Positions 4,822 to 32,132 of a stretch of 35,732 nucleotides of DNA are shown here, in pieces. The stretch spans positions 1-35,732 of the forward strand of contig JAZKYW010000147.1 of the NCBI GenBank assembly GCA_045612325.1. The letters run 5' to 3'. This stretch comes from Candidatus Limiplasma sp. GTDB taxonomy: Bacteria; Bacillota; Clostridia; Christensenellales; Aristaeellaceae. The position numbers and the translations under genes are program-made. The notes beneath the pieces are model-generated. The model was not told the origin of the DNA and made no database searches. It saw only the letters and a program-made list of their open reading frames with translations. Each line of letters starts with the position of its first letter. Within the stretch, counting starts at the first letter, position 1.

Positions 4822-4898
4822 TGGCACGCCCGGCGGGAGTCGAACCCACGGCCTACCGCTTAGGAGGCGGTCGCTCTATCCTACTGAGCTACGGGCGC
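4822..4898 (-). tRNA. tRNA-Arg (anticodon CCT, reads AGG), CCA encoded
   Basis: The reverse complement GCGCCCGTAGCTCAGTAGGATAGAGCGACCGCCTCCTAAGCGGTAGGCCGTGGGTTCGACTCCCGCCGGGCGTGCCA folds as a cloverleaf by hand: 7-bp acceptor, GCTC/GAGC D stem, ACCGC/GCGGT anticodon stem, loop CTCCTAA, TTCGACT T-loop. Confidence 0.9.
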
Positions 4899-7160: not shown

Positions 7161-8855
7161 ATGGAACTGAAGTATCAGGATCTTCTCATCACTGCGCAGG
7201 CAGATATAACAGCCGGAAAGCTGGACGACAACTGTCTGCGCATCGCGTGCACATGGCAGACGCAGGAGGCGCCCCAGCTGAAAATCAGCTGGCGCATGCC
7301 CATCGTGGACGTACACTTTTTGTGGCAACCGCGCTGCGGCAAGGACCGCAATCTGCCTGCACAGTGGGAGGACGGCTTTTTCAGCCGTGTATCCAGCGGC
7401 GCGCCCGTCGTATGCCTCTATGACCTGCACGGACAAAACCGCCTGACCTACGCCATTTCCGATGCGCTGAGCGAATGCAATCTGTATGTGGGCGTCAGCG
7501 AGGAAACAGCTGAGCTGATGTGCAGCATCACCGTTTCGCTGGAGGGTCACAACGGCGCGTATGAGGTCATCCTGCGCCGCGATGCATCCGACCGCCGCTA
7601 CGAGCAGGCGCTGGCGGACGTTTCCCGCTGGTGGGAGACCTTCTATCCGCCCATGAACGTGCCGGATATCGCCCGTGAGCCCCTGTACTCCACATGGTAC
7701 AGCTACCATCAGCAGACGATCGCCAACGAACTGGAAGCCGAGTGTGAACAGGCGGTACAGGACGGCTTTGGCTGCGTCATCGTGGATGACGGCTGGCAGA
7801 CGCAGGATATGCAGCGCGGCTACGCCTACTGCGGCGACTGGGAGCCTCTCAAAATTCCTGATATGAAGGAGCACGTAGCGCGTGTGCATGCCCTTGGCAT
7901 GAAGTACATGTTGTGGTACAGCGTGCCGTTTGTGGGCAAGCACGCCAAGATGTACAAACATTTCGAGGGCAAGTATCTCAATTTCCACGAGGAGCGCGGC
8001 ACCGCTACGCTGGACCCCCGCTATCCCGACGTGCGGGAATACCTGATCGGCATTTATGAAAAAGCCATGCGCGAGTGGGATCTGGACGGGTTCAAGCTGG
8101 ACTTTATCGACTCCTTCAGCGCAACGCGCATCGCGCCGCCCTATCAGGATGGCATGGATTGCCGCACGGTGGAGGAAGGTGTTGTAAAGCTGATGACGGG
8201 TGTGAAAGATACGCTGCAAAAACTGAAGCCCGATGTGCTCATCGAGTTCCGTCAATCCTACATCGGCCCCGCTATGCGCCTCTACGGCAACATGTTCCGC
8301 GTGGGCGACTGCCCCGATGACCTCATCAGCAACCGTGTCGGCATGGTCAGCCTGCGCCTGCTGATGGGGGAGAGCGCCGTGCATTCCGACATGCTGATGT
8401 GGCATCCCGAAGAACGCGTGGAAAATGCCGCCGTGCAGATTCAGAACATCCTGTTTGCCGTGCCGCAGATTTCCGTGCGTCTGGCAGAAGTGCCGCAGGA
8501 ACATCGCCGCATGCTTCGCTTCTGGATGCAATTCATGCACGAACACCGCAAGCTGCTGGCTGCGCCCATCCGCGCTGACCTGCCGCAGATGCTCTATCCC
8601 ATCATCCGCACAAGGCTGGAGGATGAAGCCGCCATCGCCGTATACGCTCCCGGGCAGGCGGTTGAACTGGATGACGCCAATACCACCTACCTCGTCAACG
8701 CTGCCGACAAGCAGGGCGTGATCGTTCGTTCTGCCGATGCCCGCAAGGCGGAGGTGTACGATTGCTGCGGTGAATGGCTGCAGCGCTGCGACCTCTCCGC
8801 GGGGCTTGCCATGCTGGATATCCCCCTTGGCGGCTATGCGAAAATCACCAAGTAA
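7161..8855 (+). CDS. alpha-galactosidase-like glycoside hydrolase (clan GH-D, GH36/GH27-type), paralog 1
   Basis: Canonical VIVDDGWQ substrate-binding motif, FKLDFID (nucleophile K-x-D motif) and FRVGDCPDD (R-x-x-D acid/base region). The second ATG (7161) is preferred because AGGAG at 7149-7153 is only 1 nt from the ATG at 7155. Confidence 0.75.
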   Translation: MELKYQDLLITAQADITAGKLDDNCLRIACTWQTQEAPQLKISWRMPIVDVHFLWQPRCGKDRNLPAQWEDGFFSRVSSGAPVVCLYDLHGQNRLTYAISDALSECNLYVGVSEETAELMCSITVSLEGHNGAYEVILRRDASDRRYEQALADVSRWWETFYPPMNVPDIAREPLYSTWYSYHQQTIANELEAECEQAVQDGFGCVIVDDGWQTQDMQRGYAYCGDWEPLKIPDMKEHVARVHALGMKYMLWYSVPFVGKHAKMYKHFEGKYLNFHEERGTATLDPRYPDVREYLIGIYEKAMREWDLDGFKLDFIDSFSATRIAPPYQDGMDCRTVEEGVVKLMTGVKDTLQKLKPDVLIEFRQSYIGPAMRLYGNMFRVGDCPDDLISNRVGMVSLRLLMGESAVHSDMLMWHPEERVENAAVQIQNILFAVPQISVRLAEVPQEHRRMLRFWMQFMHEHRKLLAAPIRADLPQMLYPIIRTRLEDEAAIAVYAPGQAVELDDANTTYLVNAADKQGVIVRSADARKAEVYDCCGEWLQRCDLSAGLAMLDIPLGGYAKITK

Positions 8856-8862
8856 ATGCAAA

Positions 8863-8897
8863 CAGCAGCCTTCCAAGCAGGAGGGCTGCTGCTTTTT
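8863..8897 (+). terminator. intrinsic terminator of GH paralog 1
   Basis: 12-bp stem (8863-8874 / 8880-8891, one G-U pair), loop aagca, then TTTTT. Confidence 0.75.
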
Positions 8898-8951
8898 CTG
8901 ACCGTCCGACAGCCTGCGTCGGCATTCGACCATCCCCGCGCCCGCCGCCCC

Positions 8952-8980
8952 TTGACAAGCTTTGCCATACGAAGTACAAT
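8952..8980 (+). promoter_or_regulatory. consensus SigA promoter of tRNA-Arg(CCG)
   Basis: TTGACA (8952-8957), 17 nt, then TACAAT (8975-8980). The tRNA begins 12 nt downstream. Confidence 0.7.
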
Positions 8981-8991
8981 ATTTTGTGCGC

Positions 8992-9068
8992 GCGCCCGTA
9001 GCTCAGTTGGATAGAGCGTCAGACTCCGACTCTGAAGGCCATGCGTTCGAATCGCACCGGGCGTACCA
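8992..9068 (+). tRNA. tRNA-Arg (anticodon CCG, reads CGG), CCA encoded
   Basis: GCGCCCGTAGCTCAGTTGGATAGAGCGTCAGACTCCGACTCTGAAGGCCATGCGTTCGAATCGCACCGGGCGTACCA folds as a cloverleaf with anticodon stem TCAGA/TCTGA and loop CTCCGAC. Confidence 0.9.
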
Positions 9069-9072
9069 TAGC

Positions 9073-9108
9073 ATCCTGCAACCTGTACGGTTGTAGGATT
9101 TTTCTTTT
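9073..9108 (+). terminator. intrinsic terminator of tRNA-Arg(CCG)
   Basis: 11-bp stem atcctgcaacc / ggttgtaggat (one G-U pair), loop tgtac, then TTTTCTTTT. Confidence 0.75.
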
Positions 9109-9195
9109 GTTTTACCAGGTTGAACATCCTTTTTTTACCCCCAAAATCCCCTTCGGAAACGCGCAAAAAAACGGTAAATTATTTTGATAATTCTA

Positions 9196-9223
9196 TTGAT
9201 TTTGGGTTGGAAAAGAGTATAAT
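9196..9223 (+). promoter_or_regulatory. SigA promoter of the ArsB/NhaD-type permease gene
   Basis: TTGATT (9196-9201), 16 nt, then TATAAT (9218-9223). It leaves a roughly 115-nt leader. Confidence 0.5.
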
Positions 9224-9344
9224 GGGGAACGGTTTTTTGCCCGGCTTGCGCCAGGGAAAAAGCCAAAGATACCATAGAAACACTCAACGGCATGCAGCTT
9301 AGGCAGCATGCCCGATTCTTTGCCAAAAAGAGGGGAATAACATC

Positions 9345-10526
9345 ATGCTTGGACAGCCGCGCGTACGACGTTTGCCTTTGCTGAATCTCGGTTTCCTGTA
9401 TGCACTGAAAAGGGCGCTGATGAAGCTGGTTGCCTTTTTCAACGCCAACGTGGTGATGACCGTTGCGCTGTGTGCCGCTCTTGCAACCAGCATCGTGGTG
9501 CCTGTAGACGCGCAGTATCTGGGCTACTTTGATGTAAAGACGCTGTCCTGCCTGTTCTGCGTGCTGGCGGTAGTGTGCGCGCTGAAGAATATTCAGTTCT
9601 TCTACATTCTGGCAGGCCGAATCGTTCGCCTGTTCCGCAATGCGCGCATGAGCGTGCTGGCGCTGGTGTACATCACCTTTATCGGCTCCATGCTCATCGC
9701 CAACGACATGGCGCTGCTGACCTTTCTGCCTCTGGGCTATTTTGTACTGTCCTCCACCAAGAAGGAAAAGTACATGGCTGTTACCTTCATCCTGCAGAAC
9801 ATCGCGGCCAATCTGGGCGGCATGCTGACCCCCTTTGGTAATCCGCAGAATCTGTATCTGTATACCAAGTTCGGCATTCCTACGAACGAATTTATGCAGA
9901 TCATGTTCCTGCCCTTCACCGTGGCCATCCTGCTGATCACTGCCTGCTGCCTGATCTTCGTCAAGGCGGAGCCGCTGGAAGTGAAGGATGAAGAGGTCAA
10001 ACTGCCCGTCAAGCGCACGATCGTGTATCTTATGCTGTTCGCGCTGTCCATCGCCATTGTGTTCCGCGGCATTCCCTACTGGATCGGTCTGGTGGTGATC
10101 CCCATCGCGCTGTTCTTTATGGATCAGAAGGCGCTGAAGGATGTCGATTACCCCCTGCTGCTGACTTTCGTTTTCTTCTTCGTTTTCGCGGGTAACATGG
10201 CCCGTATCGAGCCTGTGCGTGCGCTGTTCTCTTCTCTGATGGAGCGCAGCACGCTGCTGTTCAGCGTTCTGTCCTGTCAGGTGATCAGCAATGTACCCTC
10301 CGCCATCCTGCTCAGCCAGTTCACGGGCAATTATGCCGAACTGCTGGTAGGCGTGAACATTGGCGGCGCAGGCACGCTGATCGCTTCTCTGGCCAGCCTG
10401 ATCACCTTCCGCCAGTACACCAACCACAACCCCGGCAAGACCGGTCACTATGTAAAGCTCTTCTCCGCCTTCAATTTCAGTTTCCTGTTTTTGCTGACGG
10501 GCATGATGATGCTTGTGGGAATCTAA
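9345..10526 (+). CDS. ArsB/NhaD-superfamily anion permease (YbiR-like)
   Basis: Polytopic membrane protein with GGMLTPFGNPQNLYLY (GxPQN signature) and a second half-repeat GVNIGGAGTLIASLASL. GAGGGG lies 9 nt upstream of the ATG at 9345. The alternative start at 9420 (MKLVAFFNANVV...) matches the usual family N-terminus but has a weak RBS. Confidence 0.7.
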   Translation: MLGQPRVRRLPLLNLGFLYALKRALMKLVAFFNANVVMTVALCAALATSIVVPVDAQYLGYFDVKTLSCLFCVLAVVCALKNIQFFYILAGRIVRLFRNARMSVLALVYITFIGSMLIANDMALLTFLPLGYFVLSSTKKEKYMAVTFILQNIAANLGGMLTPFGNPQNLYLYTKFGIPTNEFMQIMFLPFTVAILLITACCLIFVKAEPLEVKDEEVKLPVKRTIVYLMLFALSIAIVFRGIPYWIGLVVIPIALFFMDQKALKDVDYPLLLTFVFFFVFAGNMARIEPVRALFSSLMERSTLLFSVLSCQVISNVPSAILLSQFTGNYAELLVGVNIGGAGTLIASLASLITFRQYTNHNPGKTGHYVKLFSAFNFSFLFLLTGMMMLVGI

Positions 10527-22275: not shown

Positions 22276-22323
22276 GGCAGTAATGTACAGGGGTGTACTC
22301 TGCCTGCAGGGAGGAATGCTGCT

Positions 22324-23073
22324 TTGATGATGGACCGTATCATTGCCGTGCGCAATCAAAAAACCATTTACCGCGACGGCAGCAAGTGCATCAAAGTTTT
22401 CAATGAGGATTATTCCAAAGCGGATATTTTGAGCGAAGCGCTCCATCAGGCGTGCGCGGAGCAGACGGGTCTGCACGTGCCGCGTATTCTGGAAGTGACC
22501 ACCATGGATGGCAAGTGGGCAATCGTTTCCGAATACATAAAAGGAAAAACTTTGTCGCAAAAGATGCAGGAAACTCCCCAAGAAATCGAGAAATATTTCA
22601 CAATGTATGTGGATCTTCAGCTGAAGGTGCATGCCCAAAAATGTCCGCTGCTGCCTAAGCTCAGCGACAAGCTGAACCGCAACATCAGCCTGATGGAAAC
22701 AGACGAAGCCCTGCGCTGCGAGCTGAAAAACCGTCTGGCTGCCATGCCCGAGCACACCCGGCTGTGCCACGGCGATTTTAACCCCTCCAACATCATCATT
22801 GCCGAAAACGGAGCACCTTACATTCTGGATTGGTCGCATGCCGCGCAGGGAGACCCCGCTGCCGATGCCGCCTGTGCGTATCTGCTGTTTTGCCTCAATG
22901 GCGACAGTGAAGGCGCACAGCGGTATCTGGAGCTTTTCTGCCGAAAGAGCGGCACGAGCAAAGCGAGTGTGCAGGGTTGGATGCCCATTGTGGCTGCCGC
23001 CCGTTCCGTCAAGGGAAACGCCGGCGAGCGGGATGTTCTGCTCAGTTGGCTCAATGCTGTTGATTGCCATTAA
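22324..23073 (+). CDS. APH/choline-kinase-fold phosphotransferase (kinase-like)
   Basis: 249 aa. Beta-3 Lys in SKCIKVF, catalytic loop LCHGDFNPSNIII and ILDWSHA (DxS in place of DFG). GGGAGGA lies 8 nt upstream of the TTG at 22324 (ATG alternatives at 22327 and 22330). Confidence 0.7.
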   Translation: MMMDRIIAVRNQKTIYRDGSKCIKVFNEDYSKADILSEALHQACAEQTGLHVPRILEVTTMDGKWAIVSEYIKGKTLSQKMQETPQEIEKYFTMYVDLQLKVHAQKCPLLPKLSDKLNRNISLMETDEALRCELKNRLAAMPEHTRLCHGDFNPSNIIIAENGAPYILDWSHAAQGDPAADAACAYLLFCLNGDSEGAQRYLELFCRKSGTSKASVQGWMPIVAAARSVKGNAGERDVLLSWLNAVDCH

Positions 23074-23107
23074 TCCCCCCCGTATTTACAAAAAGGAGAT
23101 CATCGCA

Positions 23108-23347
23108 ATGAAAATTACCATCTGCATCGGTTCCAGCTGCCACCTCAAGGGCTCCCGCCAGATCGTTGAAGAGCTTCAGCGCCTGGTGAAGGAAAACAAC
23201 CTGAATGACAAGGTGGAACTGGCCGGCCAGTTCTGCATGGGCAACTGCCAGAACGGCGTTTGCGTTACCGTAGACGGCGAAGCCTTCTCCCTTACCCCCG
23301 AAACCACCCGCGCATTCTTTGAGAAGGACATTCTGCCCCGTCTGTAA
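23108..23347 (+). CDS. thioredoxin-like [2Fe-2S] ferredoxin (HfsA/NuoE-like small subunit)
   Basis: 79 aa, MKITICIGSSCHLKGS...QFCMGNCQNG, giving C6-x4-C11 ... C44-x3-C48. AGGAG lies 10 nt upstream of the ATG at 23108. Confidence 0.7.
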   Translation: MKITICIGSSCHLKGSRQIVEELQRLVKENNLNDKVELAGQFCMGNCQNGVCVTVDGEAFSLTPETTRAFFEKDILPRL

Positions 23348-23422
23348 TTTCTGAATTCAAAAGCAAAGGGCTGGCGCACAAACGCGTCAGCCCTGCAGTG
23401 CTGTTCACGGGAGGAACGCCAC

Positions 23423-25099
23423 ATGCAGGAAATACTCAACCTGAACAAAAACAACTGTACCGACTGTTATAAGTGTATCCGCGACTGCTCTGTCAAGGCC
23501 ATCACCTTTGCCAAGGATACGGCCGAGATCGTGCATGAGGATTGCATCCTCTGCGGCCGCTGCTATGTTACCTGCCCGCAGAAGGCCAAGCAGGTGCGTG
23601 ATGATATCACCCGCATCAAGGCAGCTATCCTCAGCAGCCGCCGCGTGGTGGTCAGCCTTGCGCCCTCCTTTATTGCCAACTTCCGCATCCGTTCGCTGGA
23701 AGTGATCACCGAAGCCCTGCAGAAGCTGGGCTTTGATGAGGTGCAGGAAACCGCCATCGGCGCTCAGCTGGTCAGTGAGGAATACGAAAAGATCATGCGC
23801 GAGGAAAAGCTGCCGGTCATTATTTCCAGCTGCTGTCCCTCGATCAACATGCTCATCAAAAAGTATTATCCCACCATGCTTCCTTATCTGGCGAAGGTGC
23901 TCACCCCCATGGAAGCGCACTGCAAGCTGATCAAGCAGGAGCAGCCCGATGCATTCACCGTGTTCATCGGCCCCTGCATCGCCAAAAAGAAGGAAGGCGA
24001 CGACAGCCCCTACGTGGATGCCGTGCTCACCTATGACGAGCTGGCTGACTGGTTCCACAAGGAAGAGATCAAGCTGCCCTACGAGCATGTAGACCCCGCG
24101 AGCGAAGGCGCGCTGGCCCGTCTGTATCCCGCTACCGGCGGCGTGCTGAAGGCTACCGCCAAGGTGGGCGGCTACCGCCGCATCGCCATCGACGGCGTGG
24201 ATAACTGCCGCAGCGTATTTGACGAGATCGAGAAGAGCTTCTTCAACAAGGTGTTCATTGAGATGCGCGCCTGCGAAGGCAGCTGCGGCAACGGCCCCTG
24301 CATCCGCGACCACGCCGAGCGCCGCCTCAAGGGCGCCATGCGTGTTGATACCTTTGCCGGCAGCGGTGAAACGCCCTATGTGGTGCCCAACAAGCCCGAC
24401 ATTCAGGCCACCTACGGCTTCGAAGGCGGCAACAAGGTCAAGTTTGGCAGCGACGCCATCCGCGACATGCTCTACAAGATGGGCAAGACCAGCCCCGAGA
24501 AGGAGCTCAACTGCGGCTCCTGCGGCTATCCCACCTGCCGCGACAAGGCCATCGCCATTCTGGAAGGCAAGGCCAAGATCGAGATGTGTCTGCCCTTCCT
24601 GAAGGAAAAGGCCGAAAGCTTCTCCGATACCATTATTTACAACACGCCCACCGCCATCCTCGTAATGGACGAGGACCTGGTCGTTCAGCAGATCAACCCG
24701 TCGGCTATCAAGATGTTCAAGCTGAAGGACGCCAACGAGATCCTGCATGAGCATGTGGTCAAGATCCTCAATCCCGCCAATTACCAGATGATCGTCAATG
24801 CCGCGCTGCACACCCAGCATCACAGGTACCGTCTGGAGGAGTATGGCGTGCACGTGGACGAGACCATCCTCTACGACCGTCAGTATCACGTAGTCATTAC
24901 GCTTATGCGCGATGTGACCGAGCACGAAAAGCTGCGTCAGCAGGGTGCGGAACTGCGCCAGCAGACCGCCGAAGTCACCAACAAGGTGATCGACAAGCAG
25001 ATGCGCATCGTGCAGGAGATCGCTTCTCTGCTGGGTGAAACCACCGCCGAAACCCAGATCGCTCTTACCAAACTGAAGGATGCGATGGCCCATGAGTGA
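23423..25099 (+). CDS. hydS: sensory (group C, HydS/HfsB-type) [FeFe]-hydrogenase with C-terminal PAS domain
   Basis: Two ferredoxin motifs (CTDCYKCIRDC, CILCGRCYVTCP). H-cluster motifs SSCCPS, GPCIAKKKE and EMRACEGSCGNG. An extra C364-x2-C367-x4-C372-x16-C389 motif. A PAS-like segment spans about residues 400-500, followed by a coiled-coil tail. GGGAGGA lies 6 nt upstream. Confidence 0.85.
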   Translation: MQEILNLNKNNCTDCYKCIRDCSVKAITFAKDTAEIVHEDCILCGRCYVTCPQKAKQVRDDITRIKAAILSSRRVVVSLAPSFIANFRIRSLEVITEALQKLGFDEVQETAIGAQLVSEEYEKIMREEKLPVIISSCCPSINMLIKKYYPTMLPYLAKVLTPMEAHCKLIKQEQPDAFTVFIGPCIAKKKEGDDSPYVDAVLTYDELADWFHKEEIKLPYEHVDPASEGALARLYPATGGVLKATAKVGGYRRIAIDGVDNCRSVFDEIEKSFFNKVFIEMRACEGSCGNGPCIRDHAERRLKGAMRVDTFAGSGETPYVVPNKPDIQATYGFEGGNKVKFGSDAIRDMLYKMGKTSPEKELNCGSCGYPTCRDKAIAILEGKAKIEMCLPFLKEKAESFSDTIIYNTPTAILVMDEDLVVQQINPSAIKMFKLKDANEILHEHVVKILNPANYQMIVNAALHTQHHRYRLEEYGVHVDETILYDRQYHVVITLMRDVTEHEKLRQQGAELRQQTAEVTNKVIDKQMRIVQEIASLLGETTAETQIALTKLKDAMAHE

Positions 25100-26264
25100 C
25101 CTTTGGATCGAAACAGGCTGGCTCAGCCTGAACCATGTGGGGGAGACGCTTTGCGGCGACAAGGTCGAGGTTTTCGGCGGCGGCGATGAAGACCTGACGC
25201 TGGTTTTGGCGGACGGCCTTGGCAGCGGCGTAAAAGCAAACATCCTGTCCACTCTTACCTCCAAGATCCTGTGTACCATGATCTCCGGCGGTATTCCGCT
25301 GGAGGACTGCGTAGCCACCATTGCAAGCACCCTGCCTGTTTGCAGCGTGCGTCAGGTGGCGTATTCCACCTTTACCATCCTGCAGATCAAAAACAACGAA
25401 ACTGCTCACATCATCCAGTTCGACAATCCTGCCACGATTGTTCTGCGCAAGGGCGAGGTGTTCGATTATCCCCGCACCACGCGCAGCATCGCCGGCAAGA
25501 CCATCTGGGAAAGCTCCTTCCCCATTGAAGAGGATGACGTGTTCATCGCCATGAGCGACGGCGCGGAGTGGGCAGGCGTTGGCATGACCATGAACTTTGG
25601 CTGGACGCGTGATTCCATCGCCGAGTTTGCCATGGCCAACCACATGCCCGATGACAGCGCCAAAGCGACTGCCGGTCTCATCATTGACGAGTGCAACCGC
25701 CTCTACGGCGGCCGCCCGGGTGATGATACCACCATTGCCGTTGCGCATGTACGTCCCCGCCACAGCGTCAACCTCATGGTCGGCCCGCCCGAAAACAAGG
25801 AAGACGACGAGCGCGTGATGGAACTGTTCTTCGGCAAGGCAGGCAGCAGGATCGTTTGCGGCGGTACCACCAGCAATGTGGTCTCCCGCTATCTGGACCA
25901 GCCCATCGTTGCCTCTCTGGATTACTGGGACCCCGAAGTGCCGCCCATCTGCACCATCAAGGGTGTAGACCTGACCACCGAAGGCGTGATCACGCTTTCC
26001 AAGGTGCTTACCTATGCCGAGGACTTCCTCGACCAGGCAAAGCTGGCCCCTGTGTGGACCACCAAAAAAGACGGCGCAAGCCTCATCGCCCGCGAACTGT
26101 TTGAAAACGCGACGGATATTCATTTCTTCGTGGGCCGCGCCATCAACCCGGCGCACCAGAACCCCAATCTGCCCATCAACTTTGCCATCAAGCAGCAGCT
26201 GATCACCAATCTTGCAAAATGTCTTGAAAAAATGGGCAAGCACATCCGTCTTTCCTACTTCTGA
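25092..26264 (+). CDS. PP2C/SpoIIE-family serine phosphatase (HfsC-like) with an extra C-terminal domain
   Basis: CGDKVEVF, LADGLGSGVKA, AMSDGAEW and GDDTTIAV are SpoIIE/PP2C metal-binding motifs. The ATG at 25092 overlaps the hydS stop (ATGAGTGA). An alternative ATG lies at 25080. Confidence 0.85.
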   Translation: MSDLWIETGWLSLNHVGETLCGDKVEVFGGGDEDLTLVLADGLGSGVKANILSTLTSKILCTMISGGIPLEDCVATIASTLPVCSVRQVAYSTFTILQIKNNETAHIIQFDNPATIVLRKGEVFDYPRTTRSIAGKTIWESSFPIEEDDVFIAMSDGAEWAGVGMTMNFGWTRDSIAEFAMANHMPDDSAKATAGLIIDECNRLYGGRPGDDTTIAVAHVRPRHSVNLMVGPPENKEDDERVMELFFGKAGSRIVCGGTTSNVVSRYLDQPIVASLDYWDPEVPPICTIKGVDLTTEGVITLSKVLTYAEDFLDQAKLAPVWTTKKDGASLIARELFENATDIHFFVGRAINPAHQNPNLPINFAIKQQLITNLAKCLEKMGKHIRLSYF

Positions 26265-26289
26265 TGCCGTTGAGGAGGCCTTTTACATC

Positions 26290-27717
26290 ATGAAACTCTT
26301 CGATACCTACGTACAGAAACTGAAATACAAGGTGCTCCGCGAGGTCGCACGTCACGATTATGAAGGACGTTTGCAGGACAGCTATCTAGACATCCCCAAG
26401 CAGATCTCTCCCGGCCCCAAGAGCGCCCTGCGCTGCTGCATCTACAAGGAGCGCGCCATTACTGCCGAGCGCGTCAAGATGGCGATGGGCGGTCACAAGG
26501 AAAATCCCAATGTGATCGAAGTCATTGATATCGCCTGCGATGAATGCCCTGTCAGCGGCTACCGCGTAGGCCCCGACTGCCGCGGCTGTATCGCTCACCG
26601 CTGCGCCAGCGTCTGCCCCCGCGGCGCCATCAGCTTTGACGAGAATCACCATGCGCACATCGACCCCGACAAGTGCATCAACTGCGGCAAGTGCGCCGGC
26701 GTCTGCCCCTACAGCGCTATCCAGAACCACACCCGCCCCTGCGAGCGCGCCTGTAAGGTCAAGGCCATTTCTCAGGGTGAGAACCATGTAGCCAAGATCG
26801 ATGACAGCAAGTGCATCTCCTGCGGCGCCTGTGTGTATCAGTGTCCCTTCGGCGCCATTCAGGACAAGAGCTTCCTGCTGGATGCCATCCGTCTGATCCG
26901 CGAAAGCGAAAACAACAAGAAGTACCGCGTGTATGCCGTGGTCGCACCTTCCATCTCCAGCCAGTTTGTGCATGTGAAGGTTGGTCAGGTCATCACCGCG
27001 CTGAAGCATCTGGGCTTCTTCACCGTGATCGAGGCTGCTCTGGGCGCTGACATGGTCGCCTACAAGGAAGCCCGTGAGCTTGCCGAAAAGGGCTTCCTCA
27101 CCTCCAGCTGCTGCCCCGGCTTCGTCGCCTATATCGAAAAGACCTTCCCCGCGCTCAAGCAGCATATCAGCCACAACTATTCTCCCATGGCTGAGCTGGG
27201 CCGCTACATCAAGGAGACCGACCCCACCGCCAAGGTCATCTTCATTGGACCCTGCACCGCCAAGAAGGCGGAGGCTCAGCGTGAGAATGTGAAGGAGCAT
27301 GTGGATTGCGTGCTGACCTTTGAAGAACTGCAGGCCTGGATCGACAGCCGTGACCTTGACCTCGCTTCCCTCGAGGTGGGCGTGCTGGATAACGCCAGCT
27401 ACTTCGGCCGCATCTTTGCCCGCTCCGGCGGTCTGAGCGACAGCGTTGTGCAGGCCCTGAAGGAGCAGAACATCGATTTCATCGTCAACCCCGTGGTGTG
27501 CGATGGCATCGAGGAATGCCGCCTTGCCCTGCTCAAGAAGCAGAAGAACCTGCTCAAGGAAAACTTCATCGAAGGCATGGCCTGCAGCGGCGGCTGTATC
27601 GGCGGCGCAGGCTGCCTGACCCACGGCCCCAAGGACAAGGGCGAAGTGGACAAGTACGGCCACGAAGCCTACGAAAAGACCATCGGCGATGCCCTGGCCC
27701 TGTGGAATCAAAAGTAA
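26290..27717 (+). CDS. [FeFe]-hydrogenase, group B type (HfsD-like), catalytic
   Basis: 475 aa. The N-terminal MKLFDTYVQKLKYKVLREVARHDYEG region is followed by several CxxCxxCxxxCP clusters. H-cluster motifs are TSSCCPGF, GPCTAKKAEA and EGMACSGGCIGGAGC. Start set at M27 of the track ORF, with GAGGAGG 11 nt upstream. Confidence 0.85.
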   Translation: MKLFDTYVQKLKYKVLREVARHDYEGRLQDSYLDIPKQISPGPKSALRCCIYKERAITAERVKMAMGGHKENPNVIEVIDIACDECPVSGYRVGPDCRGCIAHRCASVCPRGAISFDENHHAHIDPDKCINCGKCAGVCPYSAIQNHTRPCERACKVKAISQGENHVAKIDDSKCISCGACVYQCPFGAIQDKSFLLDAIRLIRESENNKKYRVYAVVAPSISSQFVHVKVGQVITALKHLGFFTVIEAALGADMVAYKEARELAEKGFLTSSCCPGFVAYIEKTFPALKQHISHNYSPMAELGRYIKETDPTAKVIFIGPCTAKKAEAQRENVKEHVDCVLTFEELQAWIDSRDLDLASLEVGVLDNASYFGRIFARSGGLSDSVVQALKEQNIDFIVNPVVCDGIEECRLALLKKQKNLLKENFIEGMACSGGCIGGAGCLTHGPKDKGEVDKYGHEAYEKTIGDALALWNQK

Positions 27718-27730
27718 AAGTTAATAAAAA

Positions 27731-27765
27731 ACATCCCCGCCAAAAGAGTGGCGGGGATGTTTTTA
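27731..27765. terminator. bidirectional intrinsic terminator (end of hydrogenase operon / end of XRE gene)
   Basis: 11-bp stem acatccccgcc / ggcggggatgt, with A-run 27726-27730 and TTTTT 27761-27765. Confidence 0.8.
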
Positions 27766-27782
27766 TGTGCCGAAAACAAGGG

Positions 27783-27998
27783 TTATTTATTCATGGATTT
27801 TTGGGAAGTGCGCCCTGTCAAAAAATCCAAGGAAACGTGATAGAAATCAGCAAGCTTCAAAAGATGCTCAAGAGGGATGGTTTGAAAACCTCGTTCGTAA
27901 CGGCTGTATACAGTTTGTTGGATGCCTAAAAGTTCGGCAACTTGAGCCTGCGTTAAATCGGAGTCTTCGCGCATATCTCGTATCCGCTGGAAATACAT
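27783..27998 (-). CDS. XRE-family (Cro/CI-type) HTH transcriptional regulator
   Basis: 71 aa, MYFQRIRDMREDSDLTQAQVAELLGIQQTVYSRYERGFQTIPLEHLLKLADFYHVSLDFLTGRT. AAGGAG lies 10 nt upstream of the ATG at 27998. The GTGs at 28004 and 28007 are too close to the RBS. Confidence 0.85.
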   Translation of the reverse strand: MYFQRIRDMREDSDLTQAQVAELLGIQQTVYSRYERGFQTIPLEHLLKLADFYHVSLDFLTGRTSQKSMNK

Positions 27999-28020
27999 GC
28001 GCACCACACTCCTTCTTATT

Positions 28021-28034
28021 ACTTAAAAGTACTA
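28021..28034. repeat. operator-like box 1 (ACTTAAAAGTACTA)
   Basis: Perfect 14-nt direct repeat of 28077-28090. It contains the palindrome ACTT-AA-AAGT and the AGTACT palindrome, and abuts the -35 box. Confidence 0.6.
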
Positions 28035-28064
28035 TTGACAGTATTGCACGAAATACAGTAAACT
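28035..28064 (+). promoter_or_regulatory. SigA promoter of the zinc-ribbon protein gene
   Basis: TTGACA (28035-28040), 18 nt, then TAAACT (28059-28064). Confidence 0.5.
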
Positions 28065-28076
28065 TGTTTTAAAAGA

Positions 28077-28090
28077 ACTTAAAAGTACTA
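28077..28090. repeat. operator-like box 2 (ACTTAAAAGTACTA)
   Basis: Identical to box 1, 56 bp downstream. It lies between the -10 box and the AGGAGG RBS (28091-28096). Confidence 0.6.
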
Positions 28091-28103
28091 AGGAGGAAGC
28101 TAT

Positions 28104-29114
28104 ATGCAAGCAATGGTTTGTGAACTTTGCAACAGCAACGATATTGTTAAGTCTGACGGTGTTTATGTTTGTCAGCATTGTGGTACAAAATATACTGTTG
28201 AAGAGGCAAAAAAGCTGATAGGAACGGTGAAAATCGATAAATCGGAAGAAACTGAAAAATATTTAACTCTTGCAAGAAGAGCAAGAGACGAAGAGAATAT
28301 TGAAAATGCGATAAAATATTATGATATGGTATTGCGAGACAATCCCGATAACTGGGAAGCATCGTTTTATCAAGTATATTTCCAGGCGATGAACTGTAAA
28401 ATTGCAGGGATTTCAAATGCAGCTACCTCTGTGACGAATACGATAAAACCAACCTTCAAATTGATTAAAGAACATGTGGCAAATGACGAACAACAAAAAG
28501 CTGTAATTGAAGTGATGATGAGGGCGATATCTCTTGCTACGATGCTTGCTAATGCTGCAAATAATCATTATTCAAAACATTCTACTGTCAATACAGCACG
28601 TGAAGAATTAAATAATCGTCTGTTTTGTGCTGGAAGCATTTACTTGGAAATCGAAAATGGACTGAAGGAATTCTTTCCGGATGAAGAAAGAATTTTAACT
28701 TTGCATCAACAAACATGCAATAGTTATTTTAGTAGTACTAATGGGAGCTGCTTAAATTCAGATTTTCGGACTAAATTAATCAATAGATTGGTTAATGAAA
28801 TACATCAAAAAGATCCGACTTATACGGCACCAACGGTCCAAAGTGGAGGTTGCTACGTTGCCACTTGTGTATACGGCTCCTACGATTGCCCACAAGTGTG
28901 GGTACTGCGCCGCTTCCGAGATTATACGCTTGGTTCTACGTGGTATGGTCGTATGTTTGTTTCGGGTTACTATGCGGTAAGTCCGACAATTGTTCGACTT
29001 TTTGGTGAGCAGGAAAGATTCAAAACGTTTTGGAAACACCGACTTGACAAATTAGTGAATAGGTTGCAGGAGAAAGGTGTATCGGACAAACCTTACCTGG
29101 ACAGAGAGTGGTAA
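28104..29114 (+). CDS. hypothetical protein: N-terminal zinc ribbon + helical/TPR-like middle + Cys-rich C-terminal domain (CFI-box-like)
   Basis: 336 aa, 30-43% GC. C6-x2-C9...C23-x2-C26 ribbon. TPR-like segment YLTLARRARDEENIENAIKYYDMVLRDNPDNWEA. C-terminal GGCYVATCVYGSYDCPQVWVLRRFRDYTLGSTWYGRMFVSGYYAVSPTIVRLFG. AGGAGG lies 7 nt upstream. Confidence 0.8.
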   Translation: MQAMVCELCNSNDIVKSDGVYVCQHCGTKYTVEEAKKLIGTVKIDKSEETEKYLTLARRARDEENIENAIKYYDMVLRDNPDNWEASFYQVYFQAMNCKIAGISNAATSVTNTIKPTFKLIKEHVANDEQQKAVIEVMMRAISLATMLANAANNHYSKHSTVNTAREELNNRLFCAGSIYLEIENGLKEFFPDEERILTLHQQTCNSYFSSTNGSCLNSDFRTKLINRLVNEIHQKDPTYTAPTVQSGGCYVATCVYGSYDCPQVWVLRRFRDYTLGSTWYGRMFVSGYYAVSPTIVRLFGEQERFKTFWKHRLDKLVNRLQEKGVSDKPYLDREW

Positions 29115-29141
29115 ATCTTCGAAAAATCTTCTGTTTGACTA

Positions 29142-29170
29142 TTGCCATTTTGCAGCGAAACGGGTAAAAT
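29142..29170 (+). promoter_or_regulatory. SigA promoter of the proS T-box leader
   Basis: TTGCCA (29142-29147), 17 nt, then TAAAAT (29165-29170). Confidence 0.55.
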
Positions 29171-29176
29171 AAACTA

Positions 29177-29412
29177 GTACGCAGAAGGAGAATCCTCCCG
29201 CAAGCCATCCTCCAGAAAGCATGTTCACGGCTGCAAGACATGCGCTTGGCAAAAGGAGCGTCCCAACTCCCGAGTACGCAGGGGAAAGCTGAAACCCTGC
29301 CGGCCGCTCCCGTTACCGAGCACGCAAGGACGCCGTTTTCGGCGTTGAAGCAAGGTGGTACCGCGAAGAAGTTCAAGCTTCGCCCCTGCATTGAAGGGGC
29401 GAAGCTTTTTTT
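29177..29412 (+). promoter_or_regulatory. T-box riboswitch leader (proline-specific, proS)
   Basis: Conserved T-box sequence AAGGTGGTACCGCG at 29352-29365. A 13-bp terminator aagcttcgcccct / aggggcgaagctt (29375-29407) plus T7. Hand-folded Stem I has GGAG (29187-29190) pairing with CTCC (29267-29270) and places CCC-A (29262-29265) in the specifier loop. It lies directly upstream of proS. Confidence 0.8.
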
Positions 29413-29443
29413 CATCTTCTACACTGCAAAAGGAGAGAAAACC

Positions 29444-31171
29444 ATGAAGCTCAAGAATCTCGTATCCAAGCGTTATAAGGAAACGCCCGCCGACTGCCAA
29501 ATCGCCAGCCAGGCGCTCATGATGCGCGGCGGCTACATCAAGCCCGTCGGCAACGGCATCTTCACCCTGTTCCCCGCTACCAAGCGCATCACCAGCAAGA
29601 TCGAAAAGATCATCCGCGAAGAGATGAACCGCATTGACGGTCAGGAGCTGCTGTTCCCCGTTGTTATGCCCGCCACCATGTGGCAGGAGAGCGGCCGTTT
29701 TGAAGCCATCGGCTCCGAACTGCTGCGCTTCAAGGATCGTTCCGGCGCTGATATGGTGCTGGGCATGACCCACGAAGAAGCCTCCGTACACTTTGTACGC
29801 GACGTTGCTGACAGCTACACCCAGTATCCCTTCATGGTTTACCAGATCCAGACCAAGTTCCGCGATGAACCCCGCTGCCGCGGCGGTCTGATCCGTGTAC
29901 GCGAGTTCACCATGAAGGATGCTTACTCCTTCCACACCTCCCAGGAGGATCTGGAGCGTTACTACCAGATCTGCTATGACGCTTACAACCGCATCTTTGC
30001 CCGCGCCGGCGTGCCCGAGGTCGTGGCTGTTGCCAGCGACAGCGGCATGATGGGCGGCAAGGTCTCTCACGAGTACATGCTGCTGACCGCCGTTGGTGAG
30101 GATACCATCGTGCTGTGTCACGACTGCGACTACCGCGCCAACATGGAAGCCGCTCCCTGCATCGTGAACAACGAGGCAGGCGAGGTTGCCGAGCTGACCA
30201 AGGTAGCTACCCCCAATGTCAAGACCATCGAGGATCTGTGCGCCTTCCTGAACGTACGCGCCGATGCTACCTGCAAGGCCGTTGTCTATCAGGAGAACCT
30301 GACCGATAAGTATGTTGTCGCCTTCCTGCGCGGCGATCTGGACCTGAACGAGACCAAGCTGCGCAACCACATCAAGGCTGAGATCCATGCTGCCGAACTC
30401 ACCGAGGAAAGCCCCCTGTGCGCCGGCTTTATCGGCCCCGTAGGCATCAGCAAGGACGTGCGCGTAGTATTTGACGCTTCCCTCAAGGGCATCAACGCTC
30501 TGGTTTGCGGCGCCAACGAGACCGACGCTCACATGACCGGCCTCAACATCGCCCGCGATATCGGCGAGGTTGAGTATGTTGACGTTGCCAAGGCCTATGA
30601 CGGAGGCATCTGCCCCGTTTGCGGCAAGCCCAGCGTGTACACCTCCCGCGGCATCGAGGTGGGCAACATCTTCCAGCTGGGCACCAAGTACACCGAGAGC
30701 ATGGGCATGACCTATGTTGGTCAGGACGGCAGCCTCAAGAACCCCATCATGGGCTGCTACGGCATCGGCGTAGGCCGTCTGGCCGCTTCCGTCTGCGAAG
30801 CTCACCGCGATGATTACGGCCCCATCTGGCCCATCTCCATCGCTCCCTGGCATGTACACCTGTGCAGCATGCGCCCCGATAACGAGGAAGTGGCTGCCAT
30901 GTCCCAGAAGATCTATGACGAACTGTCTGCCAAGGGCATCGAAGTCATCTGGGATGACCGTCCCGTCAGCGCCGGCGTTATGTTTGCCGATGCCGACCTC
31001 ATCGGCGTGCCCGTGCGCATGATCGTTAGCCCCAAGGGCCTCAAGGGCGGCACCATCGAAGTGTCCACCCGCGACAAGAGCCTGCAGGAGCGCAAGCCTA
31101 TCGAAGAAGCCGTCGATTTCGTTTACAACTACGTTGTGGATGAACTGGCCAAGCTGGAGTGCCGCCTGTAA
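29444..31171 (+). CDS. proS: prolyl-tRNA synthetase (bacterial type with INS editing domain)
   Basis: 575 aa. MKLKNLVSKRYKETPADCQIASQALMMRGGYIKPVGNGIFTLFP. Class II motifs FRDEPRCRGGLIRVREFTMKDAYSF and GCYGIGVGRL. Start set at M69 of the track ORF, with AAGGAG upstream of the ATG at 29444. Confidence 0.95.
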   Translation: MKLKNLVSKRYKETPADCQIASQALMMRGGYIKPVGNGIFTLFPATKRITSKIEKIIREEMNRIDGQELLFPVVMPATMWQESGRFEAIGSELLRFKDRSGADMVLGMTHEEASVHFVRDVADSYTQYPFMVYQIQTKFRDEPRCRGGLIRVREFTMKDAYSFHTSQEDLERYYQICYDAYNRIFARAGVPEVVAVASDSGMMGGKVSHEYMLLTAVGEDTIVLCHDCDYRANMEAAPCIVNNEAGEVAELTKVATPNVKTIEDLCAFLNVRADATCKAVVYQENLTDKYVVAFLRGDLDLNETKLRNHIKAEIHAAELTEESPLCAGFIGPVGISKDVRVVFDASLKGINALVCGANETDAHMTGLNIARDIGEVEYVDVAKAYDGGICPVCGKPSVYTSRGIEVGNIFQLGTKYTESMGMTYVGQDGSLKNPIMGCYGIGVGRLAASVCEAHRDDYGPIWPISIAPWHVHLCSMRPDNEEVAAMSQKIYDELSAKGIEVIWDDRPVSAGVMFADADLIGVPVRMIVSPKGLKGGTIEVSTRDKSLQERKPIEEAVDFVYNYVVDELAKLECRL

Positions 31172-31183
31172 AAAGCAAATAAA

Positions 31184-31224
31184 AATCCCCTGCGCTTGAG
31201 AAATCATGCGTAGGGGATTTTTTT
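31184..31224. terminator. bidirectional intrinsic terminator (proS / APH-like gene)
   Basis: 11-bp stem aatcccctgcg / cgtaggggatt (one G-U pair) followed by TTTTTT. The outer arms gcaaataaaa / ttttatttgc extend the inverted repeat and give a U-rich tail on the minus strand. Confidence 0.75.
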
Positions 31225-31229
31225 GCGTT

Positions 31230-32075
31230 TTATTTGCAATGGGTACGAAACACATTCATGATATGGGATTGATAAGACGGGTCGTCTGCGCCGATTTGAT
31301 AAAAATGCGCATAGATCAATACCATGTAGTATTGAACATACTTCCAATTGCAAGCGTTTGCTGAGTGATATCCCTTTAAAAACAAAGCGATTTCTTCGTC
31401 TGTTTTTAGAAATGTTTGTCCGGGTCTGACGATCAGAGCCCACGCGATATCGAACTCCCTATTGCCTATACCTGATAATTCAAAATCCAGTATGGCGGAT
31501 ATGCGTTCTTTCTGCCAGAGAATATTTGCATAATGAAAATCGCCATGGCAAAAGCATTTGCTGATTGATTGTGGGCGATTTTCTGTCAAAAAATCATGGA
31601 CGAAACACAGATGGTATTTCTTAAAGTATTGTCGGTTAGGAATGTGAAAGAATTTTCGGTCTTTTACATCGGTAAAATCTCCATGAATGCTGTGTAGTTG
31701 GGCAAGGGTTTTGCCGTATTCATGAAGATAATGGAGGGAGGATGCGTTGGAGTCAGAGGCAAGGATGATTGACAGCCGTTCACCGTGTTTGGCAGCTGTC
31801 ACTAAAAAGCTGTGTTCCTGTTCGTCAAATTCAAGGATATCGGGCGCAAGGGGATGATGCAGTTGTGTGATCGCGGAAAATTCATTAGCCAAGTCGGCAC
31901 CCGATTGACGAGCAACCTTGATATATGCTTCTGTTTCTGCACCTTTGAAAAGCCCTTTTACGTGAAATACATCGTTACCCGCATGGGGATAACCAAGAAT
32001 ATCCGTAAGCTTGAAAAATCGCAAAGGAAGCTTCCAAGGGTCGATTGTATCTCTCCATTTTTGAGGATGTTTCAT
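31230..32075 (-). CDS. aminoglycoside-phosphotransferase (APH)-family kinase, low-GC
   Basis: 281 aa. Beta-3 Lys in AYIKVAR, catalytic loop CFCHGDFHYANILW and LDFELSG (DFG equivalent). AGGAGG lies 5 nt upstream of the ATG at 32075. Hand-counted lines give 38-42% GC. Confidence 0.75.
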   Translation of the reverse strand: MKHPQKWRDTIDPWKLPLRFFKLTDILGYPHAGNDVFHVKGLFKGAETEAYIKVARQSGADLANEFSAITQLHHPLAPDILEFDEQEHSFLVTAAKHGERLSIILASDSNASSLHYLHEYGKTLAQLHSIHGDFTDVKDRKFFHIPNRQYFKKYHLCFVHDFLTENRPQSISKCFCHGDFHYANILWQKERISAILDFELSGIGNREFDIAWALIVRPGQTFLKTDEEIALFLKGYHSANACNWKYVQYYMVLIYAHFYQIGADDPSYQSHIMNVFRTHCK

Positions 32076-32106
32076 TTTTCCTCCTAAAAGGTAAAAAGGA
32101 AGCAAA

Positions 32107-32132
32107 CTCACAACGGGTATACGAGTTGTGAG
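32107..32132 (-). terminator. terminator hairpin of the AEC permease operon
   Basis: 8-bp stem ctcacaac / gttgtgag. The minus-strand RNA continues UUUGCUUCCUUUUU. Confidence 0.5.

Follow-up and report, generated by a model that had tools for sequence, protein, structure and literature searches.

An AT-rich two-gene islet between hydA and proS of a Candidatus Limiplasma species pairs an XRE regulator with a member of a large zinc-ribbon/CFI-box protein family

We analyzed a 35,732-nucleotide contig of Candidatus Limiplasma sp. (GenBank assembly GCA_045612325.1, contig JAZKYW010000147.1), referred to here as the window, with a focus on a short AT-rich islet at positions 27766 to 29141 between the hydrogenase gene hydA and proS. 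The islet contains two real genes in divergent orientation: an XRE/Cro-C1-type helix-turn-helix (HTH) gene on the minus strand (27783 to 27998; 71 amino acids [aa]) and a gene for a 336-aa protein on the plus strand (28104 to 29114). Its reading frame, its homologues, and a structure model place the latter in a family that combines a zinc ribbon, a TPR-like region, and a CFI-box. The remaining open reading frames (ORFs) of the islet are overlapping shadows, and homologues or domains were found for just these two ORFs.

The initial annotation had described a low-GC island that starts after a bidirectional terminator, ends at the proS promoter, and contains two genes that diverge from a common control region, and this description held up. 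The islet has a GC content of 38.7%, compared with a mean of 56.1% in the remaining window (standard deviation, 4.2%, from 500-bp intervals; z = -4.1), and is the most AT-rich 1,376-bp stretch anywhere in the window. When computed in 200-bp intervals, the GC fraction fell from 0.62 at 27500 to 27699 to between 0.315 and 0.485 over 27700 to 29199 and returned to 0.595 at 29200, with values of 0.52 to 0.65 in the flanks. At third codon positions (GC3), the fraction was 0.33 in the 336-aa gene and 0.43 in the XRE gene, versus 0.72 to 0.79 in hydA, proS, spoIIE, alr, and the M20 peptidase gene. The contrast thus sits in codon choice and goes beyond amino acid content alone.

The limits of the islet are sharp. 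On the left, a perfect G+C-rich hairpin (27727 to 27764; 16 pairs, 8 of them GC, 100% complementary) is preceded by an A run and followed by a T run. It lies 10 nucleotides (nt) past the hydA stop codon (27717) and 19 nt past the XRE stop codon (27783), and, judging by its sequence, it can serve as a terminator for both genes. On the right, immediately outside the islet, a promoter-like site for proS (29142 to 29170, plus strand; TTGCCA at 29142 and TAAAAT at 29170) is followed by a T-box leader on the same strand (29173 to 29390; Rfam RF00230, full model, 55.6 bits, E = 5.7e-11, below the gathering score of 93) with a terminator hairpin (29375 to 29407, plus strand). Because of this leader, the long ORF at 29240 to 31171 is an overextension, and ProS starts at 29444. 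DNA homology to three groups of relatives begins at 29142, 29154, and 29165, so the right end given previously (29141) was accurate to the base. The annotation had also reported no integrase and no flanking direct repeat above 6 nt. No integrase or recombinase was indeed found among the islet ORFs scanned with Pfam and NCBIfam. Repeats common to the two edges reach 7 nt at most, a length that shuffled sequences also give by chance, and there were no att-like repeats beyond chance. We considered an insertion of a prophage, an integrative and conjugative element, or a transposon and rejected it, as the islet has two genes, no recombinase, and no flanking repeats above chance.

The XRE protein matched Pfam HTH_3 (PF01381; E = 1.9e-15, 57.1 bits against a cutoff of 23, residues 9 to 63) and the transcriptional regulator PHROG 8 (E = 2.2e-19), and it consists of the DNA-binding domain alone, without a sensor domain. 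Matches to RstR, MqsA, HipB, PezA, Y4mF, capH, and controller proteins were below the cutoffs or reflected the generic HTH. Translation could start at ATG 27998 (71 aa) or GTG 28007 (74 aa). The ATG appears more likely because it has an AAGGAG motif 10 nt upstream and because the same 71-aa call was made in L001 and L002, two metagenome contigs of the same species that hold the islet at the same place.

The two genes share a 96-bp control region (28008 to 28103) with a promoter-like site, a ribosome-binding site, and repeated boxes. The promoter-like site of the 336-aa gene (28035 to 28064, plus strand) consists of TTGACA (28035 to 28040), an 18-nt spacer, and TAAACT (28059 to 28064), matching the consensus at 10 of 12 positions; inspection of the sequence placed a ribosome-binding site, AGGAGG, at approximately 28091 to 28096 on the same strand. 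Two perfect copies of a 14-nt box, ACTTAAAAGTACTA, bracket this promoter. One abuts the -35 element (28021 to 28034), and the other lies between the -10 element and the ribosome-binding site (28077 to 28090), with an imperfect third copy (10 of 11 positions matching) at 28069 to 28079. Both perfect boxes are identical in L001 and L002, where two other positions of the spacer have changed. Other XRE-linked loci of the 336-aa family (L004, L008, L017, and L062) each carry repeated boxes of a different, unrelated sequence around TTGACA...TATAAT promoters. It is reasonable to regard the ACTTAAAAGTACTA boxes as candidate operators of the XRE protein.

The 336-aa protein has a recognizable beginning and end and a variable middle. 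The positions that are invariant in 91 homologues fall into three groups, located in the zinc ribbon, the TPR-like hairpins, and the last 90 residues. The C4 zinc ribbon (residues 1 to 30; 28104 to 28193) carries the invariant cysteines C6, C9, C23, and C26 and forms two short strands in the model; Pfam zinc-ribbon families matched it weakly and below their cutoffs. Invariant columns and the model helices at residues 47 to 62, 66 to 79, and 84 to 96 define TPR-like helical hairpins (residues 47 to 96; 28242 to 28391) with the motifs ARRA (57 to 60), N65, YY (72 and 73), P81, and WEA (84 to 86). The match to TPR_16 was weak (E = 0.0016, 19.3 bits against a gathering score of 32.7). A helical body with few conserved columns follows (residues 100 to 236; 28401 to 28811), modeled with a predicted local distance difference test score (pLDDT) of 90 to 98. 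The C-terminal part is a CFI-box-CTERM domain (residues 250 to 318; 28851 to 29057) reading CYVATCVYGSYDCPQVWVLRRFRD...YYAVSP.... It matched NCBIfam NF041770 over model positions 1 to 69 of 69 (E = 1.6e-19, 69.4 bits against a cutoff of 40), opens with C250-Y-V-A-T, and ends 18 residues before the stop codon, as befits a member of this family. Its invariants among the 91 homologues are C250, A253, T254, Y257, G258, LRR (268 to 270), R272, D273, YY (289 and 290), and P294, and a strongly amphipathic last helix extends past it to residue 323. In the earlier description of the product as a zinc-ribbon/Cys-rich-domain protein, the supposed Cys-rich part is the cataloged CFI-box-CTERM domain, with only two conserved cysteines.

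The AlphaFold2 model of the whole protein (pLDDT of 90.2) has the two short strands followed by 13 helices and is all-helical past the zinc ribbon. No transmembrane segment was found (maximum 19-residue Kyte-Doolittle mean, 1.4). Searches of Pfam and NCBIfam gave no catalytic or enzymatic domain, and these two databases and PADLOC gave no toxin family. In PADLOC-DB 2.0, nothing was significant (the best match was CorA-like, with an E value of 0.005 and 14 bits), and neither PHROGs nor a sequence search of the PDB gave a match. Foldseek searches of PDB and BFVD with the model returned generic TPR or solenoid proteins only, with template modeling scores of at most 0.26 when normalized to the query and at most 0.37 when normalized to the target. 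A literature search on the CFI-box found no paper, and one on SPFH proteins in antiphage defense listed two papers with no more than passing mentions.

This protein belongs to a very large family. A profile search of 1.84 billion representatives, counted as clusters at 50% identity, returned 3,418 clusters at an E value of 1e-30 or lower, nearly all 330 to 360 aa long and with the same architecture; looser thresholds gave 10,620 clusters (1e-10) and 27,963 clusters (1e-3). With one genome per species, the family is present in at least 591 species, and identity across phyla is 35 to 45%. Carriers include Clostridia (Oscillospiraceae, Acutalibacteraceae, and Lachnospiraceae), Bacteroidales (Prevotella, Phocaeicola, and Dysgonomonas), Niabella, an actinobacterium, and a member of Anaerolineaceae. 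At 75 loci, the family gene had a mean GC content of 38.8% and a GC3 of 0.36 whatever the GC content of the host (25 to 63%). It was more than 5 GC points below its flanks at 49 of these loci and more than 10 points below at 29. A full-length 351-aa member with zinc ribbon, TPR-like region, and CFI-box is also encoded on the unannotated Clostridioides difficile phage-plasmid pCD1602_4 (L179, 2345 to 3400), where a 462-aa ORF with the P-loop-like motif GQNGSGKT lies about 600 bp downstream.

To see the company that the family keeps, we clustered the ORFs within 3 kb of the family gene at about 80 species loci. The commonest partner was a Band_7_1 SPFH gene located upstream on the same strand (18 loci, or approximately 22%, in Clostridia and Bacteroidales), the product of which ends in GYF_2 or a double zinc ribbon. 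At 13 of these 18 loci, a gene for a multipass membrane protein from one of two families (9 and 4 loci) sits between the SPFH gene and the family gene. Gaps to the family gene were -3 to 34 bp at 12 loci, indicating tight operons in Clostridia and Bacteroidales. An iterated search detected a small divergent HTH_3 gene no more than 400 bp upstream at 9 of 72 loci (approximately 12%). Given a background of 23 HTH ORFs in 834 kb, approximately 0.2 to 0.4 loci were expected, which corresponds to a more than 20-fold enrichment. These XRE partners are heterogeneous, at 10 to 47% identity. A Pfam census of the two upstream genes counted HTH_3 12 times, Band_7_1 11 times, GYF_2 7 times, HEPN 4 times, and SHOCT 3 times. 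No conserved downstream partner was found; ETF genes reflected lineage synteny, and TIR_2 occurred four times. SPFH-linked and XRE-linked copies are interleaved when ordered by similarity to the window protein, and none of the three closest homologues among the contigs read (P0002, P0003, and P0016; 56 to 63% identity) has a directly adjacent divergent XRE gene.

Further neighbors were seen at some loci. At L003 (5568 to 5986; homologue P0027, 54% identity) and L180 (3553 to 3968; homologue P0002, 63% identity), the homologue is preceded by two conserved small genes on the same strand, one encoding 74 to 77 aa and the other an HTH-like protein of 61 aa (MAxRVTPxEIVEM...). Nearby genes encode an integrase and a resolvase at L003 and a reverse transcriptase at L180, making this a third type of context. 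In SPFH-type operons at L010 (6102 to 7922), L064 (7035 to 9485), and L075 (6928 to 8610), the gene directly downstream of the family gene encodes a large TIR_2-domain protein with an N-terminal zinc ribbon and TPR repeats, in one case together with DUF6273. One TIR_2 neighbor weakly matches the PADLOC candidate PDC-S66. We looked for an N-terminal module common to the family and its TIR neighbors and do not claim one, as only the zinc ribbon aligned, and weakly (E = 2e-4 in one pair and nothing in another). Strong matches to defense models made up approximately 5% of the immediate neighbors: MADS mad2/mad3 (3 loci), SspH, LeoA/BC, and PDC candidates. PADLOC gave no significant match for the SPFH partner, the membrane partner, or most TIR neighbors of the homologues, and PHROGs gave none for the SPFH partner.

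The CFI-box also occurs outside this family. On plasmids, it is fused to a cold-shock domain and a zinc ribbon (Burkholderia, beside the anti-restriction gene lar), fused to a TPR-like region (Acinetobacter, on a 5-kb plasmid), or part of a 138-aa protein whose gene overlaps the start of a gene for a membrane-anchored PD-(D/E)XK nuclease (Vibrio). The Vibrio case had appeared as a fusion of nuclease and CFI-box, which we discarded as a gene table artifact because the CFI-box lies in the separate 138-aa ORF. None of these three plasmid forms has a transmembrane segment past the domain. They have in common with the window protein the motif C-[FY]-[IV]-A-T...YGS...LR.[FY]RD...YY..SP and differ in their heads, which are cold-shock plus zinc ribbon, TPR only, or a short N terminus elsewhere, whereas the head of the window protein combines a zinc ribbon and TPR-like hairpins with a variable helical body of 140 residues. 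The CFI-box can be described as a portable cytoplasmic C-terminal module on mobile DNA.

Next, we turned to the history of the islet. It is carried by at least three strains of the species. ProS has homologues in Aristaeellaceae (90%) and Candidatus Ventricola (86%), which puts the organism with uncultured Clostridia of the gut and rumen. An exact look-up of the HydA sequence returned no record. In 23 sister-species contigs (HydA 82 to 85% identical) that are syntenic with the window from 22300 to 27700, synteny ends exactly at the hydA stop codon; the islet is absent, and nothing 3' of hydA matches the window. Neither islet gene was present at 57 more distant hydA loci. On the other side, relatives with 97%, 96%, and 94% identical ProS have neither the islet nor hydA upstream of proS, where a Y_phosphatase3 gene or adhE is found instead; the 97% relative keeps the right flank of the window (proS, APH, Mem_trans, alr, and M20). 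Synteny thus breaks off precisely where the islet lies, between the hydrogenase cluster and proS. The data contain no empty hydA-proS junction, the absence being seen at each flank separately, and no islet-skipping joint occurred among the listed contigs from four gut metagenomes. The absence beside both hydA and proS in the nearest relatives supports horizontal acquisition, as the initial annotation had proposed, and the AT richness and cross-phylum spread of the family agree with it. The alternative named there, an ancient resident present in all relatives, is not what we found.

Both islet genes are kept intact in the three strains. Compared with L001 and L002, the 336-aa gene has 27 synonymous and 3 nonsynonymous differences (ratio of nonsynonymous to synonymous substitution rates [dN/dS], 0.027), which indicates a functional gene under strong purifying selection. 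The synonymous rate was 0.04 to 0.14 in the islet and 0.21 to 0.39 in spoIIE, hydA, and proS, a two- to threefold reduction. In the comparison of 27718 to 29443 with these contigs, the islet was 97 to 98.7% identical and the flanking genes 88 to 95% identical, and L001 and L002 were 100% identical to each other within the islet. The islet is thus younger, or more recently exchanged, than its surroundings, which suggests recent spread or exchange within the species.

Taken together, we tentatively favor a reading in which the islet is a mobile accessory gene repressed by the XRE protein, with a product that may be a nonenzymatic, membrane-proximal scaffold working with SPFH-type and membrane partners; we hold this with less than even confidence. 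The 71-aa protein would bind the repeated ACTTAAAAGTACTA boxes at the -35 element and just past the -10 element of the divergent promoter, and this would keep the 336-aa gene, and probably the XRE gene as well, repressed until a cue relieves the repression. The HTH_3 match, the conserved boxes bracketing the promoter, the boxes at other XRE-linked loci, and the above-chance frequency of divergent HTH_3 genes argue for this part. The 336-aa product would be a soluble scaffold or adaptor that acts at the inner face of the membrane, as suggested by the all-helical model, the lack of a catalytic domain and of a transmembrane segment, the SPFH and membrane protein genes beside its orthologues, and the interleaving of SPFH-linked and XRE-linked copies. 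In about one-fifth of the species, the orthologue closes a tight operon that has the Band_7_1 SPFH gene first and mostly a membrane protein gene second. The copy in the window would be a solo one under a private repressor; SPFH or membrane partners, if any, would have to come from genes in other parts of the genome. The physiological output could be either envelope stress protection or a phage-triggered membrane response.

Several observations weigh against this reading. No SPFH gene or partner membrane gene was found in the window (tblastn, E > 1), so the SPFH link comes through orthology only, and about two-thirds of the family loci lack SPFH and XRE neighbors alike. HEPN and TIR genes join the MADS, SspH, LeoA/BC, and PDC genes beside some family loci, and CFI-box proteins on plasmids are found near lar, ssb, and nuclease genes; such neighbors fit a role in conflict at least as well as one in stress. 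For the XRE gene itself, no match to a promoter consensus was found in the control region. An extended -10 candidate, TGCAATACT (minus strand, 28048 to 28040), is altered in L001 and L002, and we did not rely on it. There were also no RNA sequencing runs with the islet, which was seen in DNA metagenomes only.

A competing explanation, along the lines of the initial annotation, is that the islet is a self-contained antiphage, abortive infection, or toxin-like module in which the XRE protein silences a harmful 336-aa effector until infection or stress, the effector perhaps acting on the membrane through the CFI-box and the amphipathic tail. We regard this as unlikely, if well worth keeping in mind. 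The patchy distribution across phyla, a GC content mostly below that of the host, the location at a synteny breakpoint, the tight promoter-operator layout, and the variable middle region between conserved ends would all suit such a module, as would the full-length homologue on the C. difficile phage-plasmid beside the GQNGSGKT ORF, the plasmid CFI-box proteins near lar and nuclease genes, and the minority of loci that adjoin defense-type genes. However, defense models were strongly matched by few immediate neighbors, the pairing with an XRE gene is found at roughly one locus in eight with unrelated XRE proteins, and the closest homologues do without it. The 336-aa protein lacks a transmembrane segment and any effector domain, be it nuclease, NADase, kinase, pore-forming, or another kind, and neither it nor the SPFH and membrane proteins gave a significant PADLOC match. 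The earlier wording "defense, abortive infection, or toxin-like cargo" thus finds no PADLOC, PHROGs, toxin family, catalytic domain, or structural match behind it. Calling the pair an undescribed two-gene system was likewise too strong, as the divergent XRE gene is above chance but present at few loci and the SPFH partner is commoner.

The heterogeneity of the XRE partners, and their absence from most family loci, could also mean that the two genes have no functional tie. They would then be remnants of the regulatory end of an integrative element, the XRE protein controlling only itself or distant genes and the 336-aa gene being independently expressed cargo. The contexts at L003 and L180, with two different small genes ahead of the homologue, one of them HTH-like, and genes for an integrase, resolvase, or reverse transcriptase in the vicinity, fit this picture. 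We consider it quite improbable, since the 14-nt boxes flank the core promoter of the 336-aa gene rather than the XRE start alone, the divergent XRE position is more than 20-fold above background, and both genes are foreign in composition, have a low synonymous rate, and are intact in three strains. Very improbable, finally, is a type II toxin-antitoxin pair with the XRE protein as the antitoxin. Weak subthreshold matches of the XRE protein to MqsA, HipB, PezA, and Y4mF point that way through the generic HTH, but every antitoxin match was below its curated cutoff, most family members lack any XRE gene, and the 336-aa protein is outside the toxin families and far larger than typical toxins. Gene order contradicts this explanation and brings it close to refutation: the genes are divergent, their starts are 105 bp apart, and they are not cotranscribed.

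The membrane-proximal scaffold that we favor has its nearest functional analogue in SamGHI (YdjGHI) of Bacillus subtilis, where two partners, a zinc-ribbon protein and an integral membrane protein, bring a zinc finger Band_7_1 SPFH protein to the membrane, and the SPFH protein then recruits PspA (PMC8581546; bioRxiv 10.64898/2026.02.06.704340). The orthologue operons bring together the same three types of protein as SamI, SamH, and SamG (an SPFH protein, often with a C-terminal zinc ribbon, a small membrane protein, and a zinc-ribbon protein), but there is no homology beyond the SPFH protein, and the likeness lies in the set of proteins and not in descent. In YdjG, a YpeB/NTF2-like domain and a transmembrane segment accompany two zinc ribbons, and YdjH contains a TPM domain (PMC11237479). 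The 336-aa protein, in contrast, has one zinc ribbon and is soluble, all-helical, and without a transmembrane segment, and the membrane partners scanned have no Pfam domain and hence no TPM. We therefore ruled out, by architecture, that the 336-aa protein is a YdjG/SamG homologue, and the window copy, with no Band_7_1 SPFH gene in the 35.7 kb, is not a SamGHI member. pspA was absent among the common neighbors of the family loci.

On the regulatory side, the islet resembles Cro/CI and C-protein modules (phage immunity regions, restriction-modification controllers, and CapH of the cyclic oligonucleotide-based antiphage signaling system). Those likewise have a minimal HTH_3 protein divergent from its presumed target and repeated boxes overlapping promoters, and the top PADLOC matches of the XRE protein are capH and controllers, through the generic HTH. 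Their half-sites are classically inverted, whereas the boxes here are direct repeats of a nonpalindromic 14-mer, and the islet has no CapP protease, restriction enzyme, methylase, or phage lytic genes. A Cro-like HTH regulator beside a membrane-associated, nonenzymatic effector is also seen in ClgR-PspA (PMC11237479), although only as an analogy; no PspA/ESCRT-III fold is present here.

The flanks of the islet contain further features. The left-flank cluster consists of genes for a HydS-like [FeFe]-hydrogenase homologue with an extra Fe-S domain (23423 to 25099), a SpoIIE-type PP2C phosphatase (25080 to 26264), and HydA (26290 to 27717); it is conserved in the sister species and looks like a hydrogen-sensing regulatory unit. 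In one sister-species contig (L101, 7690 to 8433), a different low-GC insertion lies directly past the hydA terminator and is absent from L092 and L100. It encodes a 247-aa, probably secreted protein with a hydrophobic N terminus and an SH3_3 domain. Small AT-rich genes seem to land repeatedly at the 3' end of hydA. To the right, a gene of the APH phosphotransferase family (31230 to 32111, minus strand) is a second low-GC gene of the window (GC, 0.42; GC3, 0.405). The closest proS relative, which lacks the islet, does have this gene (L165, 7826 to 8683), and the proS-APH block (29165 to 32075) is approximately 82% identical to L165 at the DNA level. That relative has an extra esterase gene (8760 to 9515), which is missing from the window between 32075 and 32157. 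Two tRNA genes (4825 to 4898, minus strand, and 8992 to 9065, plus strand; Rfam RF00005, 67 and 62 bits) lie a long way from the islet, with no apparent connection.

The regulatory layout of the islet is ordinary; its cargo belongs to a very large, uncharacterized, mobile family with a new SPFH link. As a bolder and rather unlikely extension, the family, the Band_7_1 SPFH protein, and the small multipass membrane protein might form an undescribed, widespread, and horizontally mobile three-component membrane system of gut and rumen anaerobes, possibly an SPFH-gated device for abortive infection or membrane repair. The CFI-box would then be a new membrane- or partner-docking domain and the XRE-controlled solo copies the minimal mobile form. 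For this family, whose members come from at least four phyla of gut and rumen bacteria, we found no characterized member and no structural homologue. The islet and its relatives provide two leads, the recurrent tight operon with SPFH and membrane protein genes and the solo copies behind a presumed simple repressor-operator switch, open to derepression at will. If a role in membrane stress or phage defense is true, it would give a function to thousands of hypothetical proteins annotated as "TFIIB-type zinc finger."

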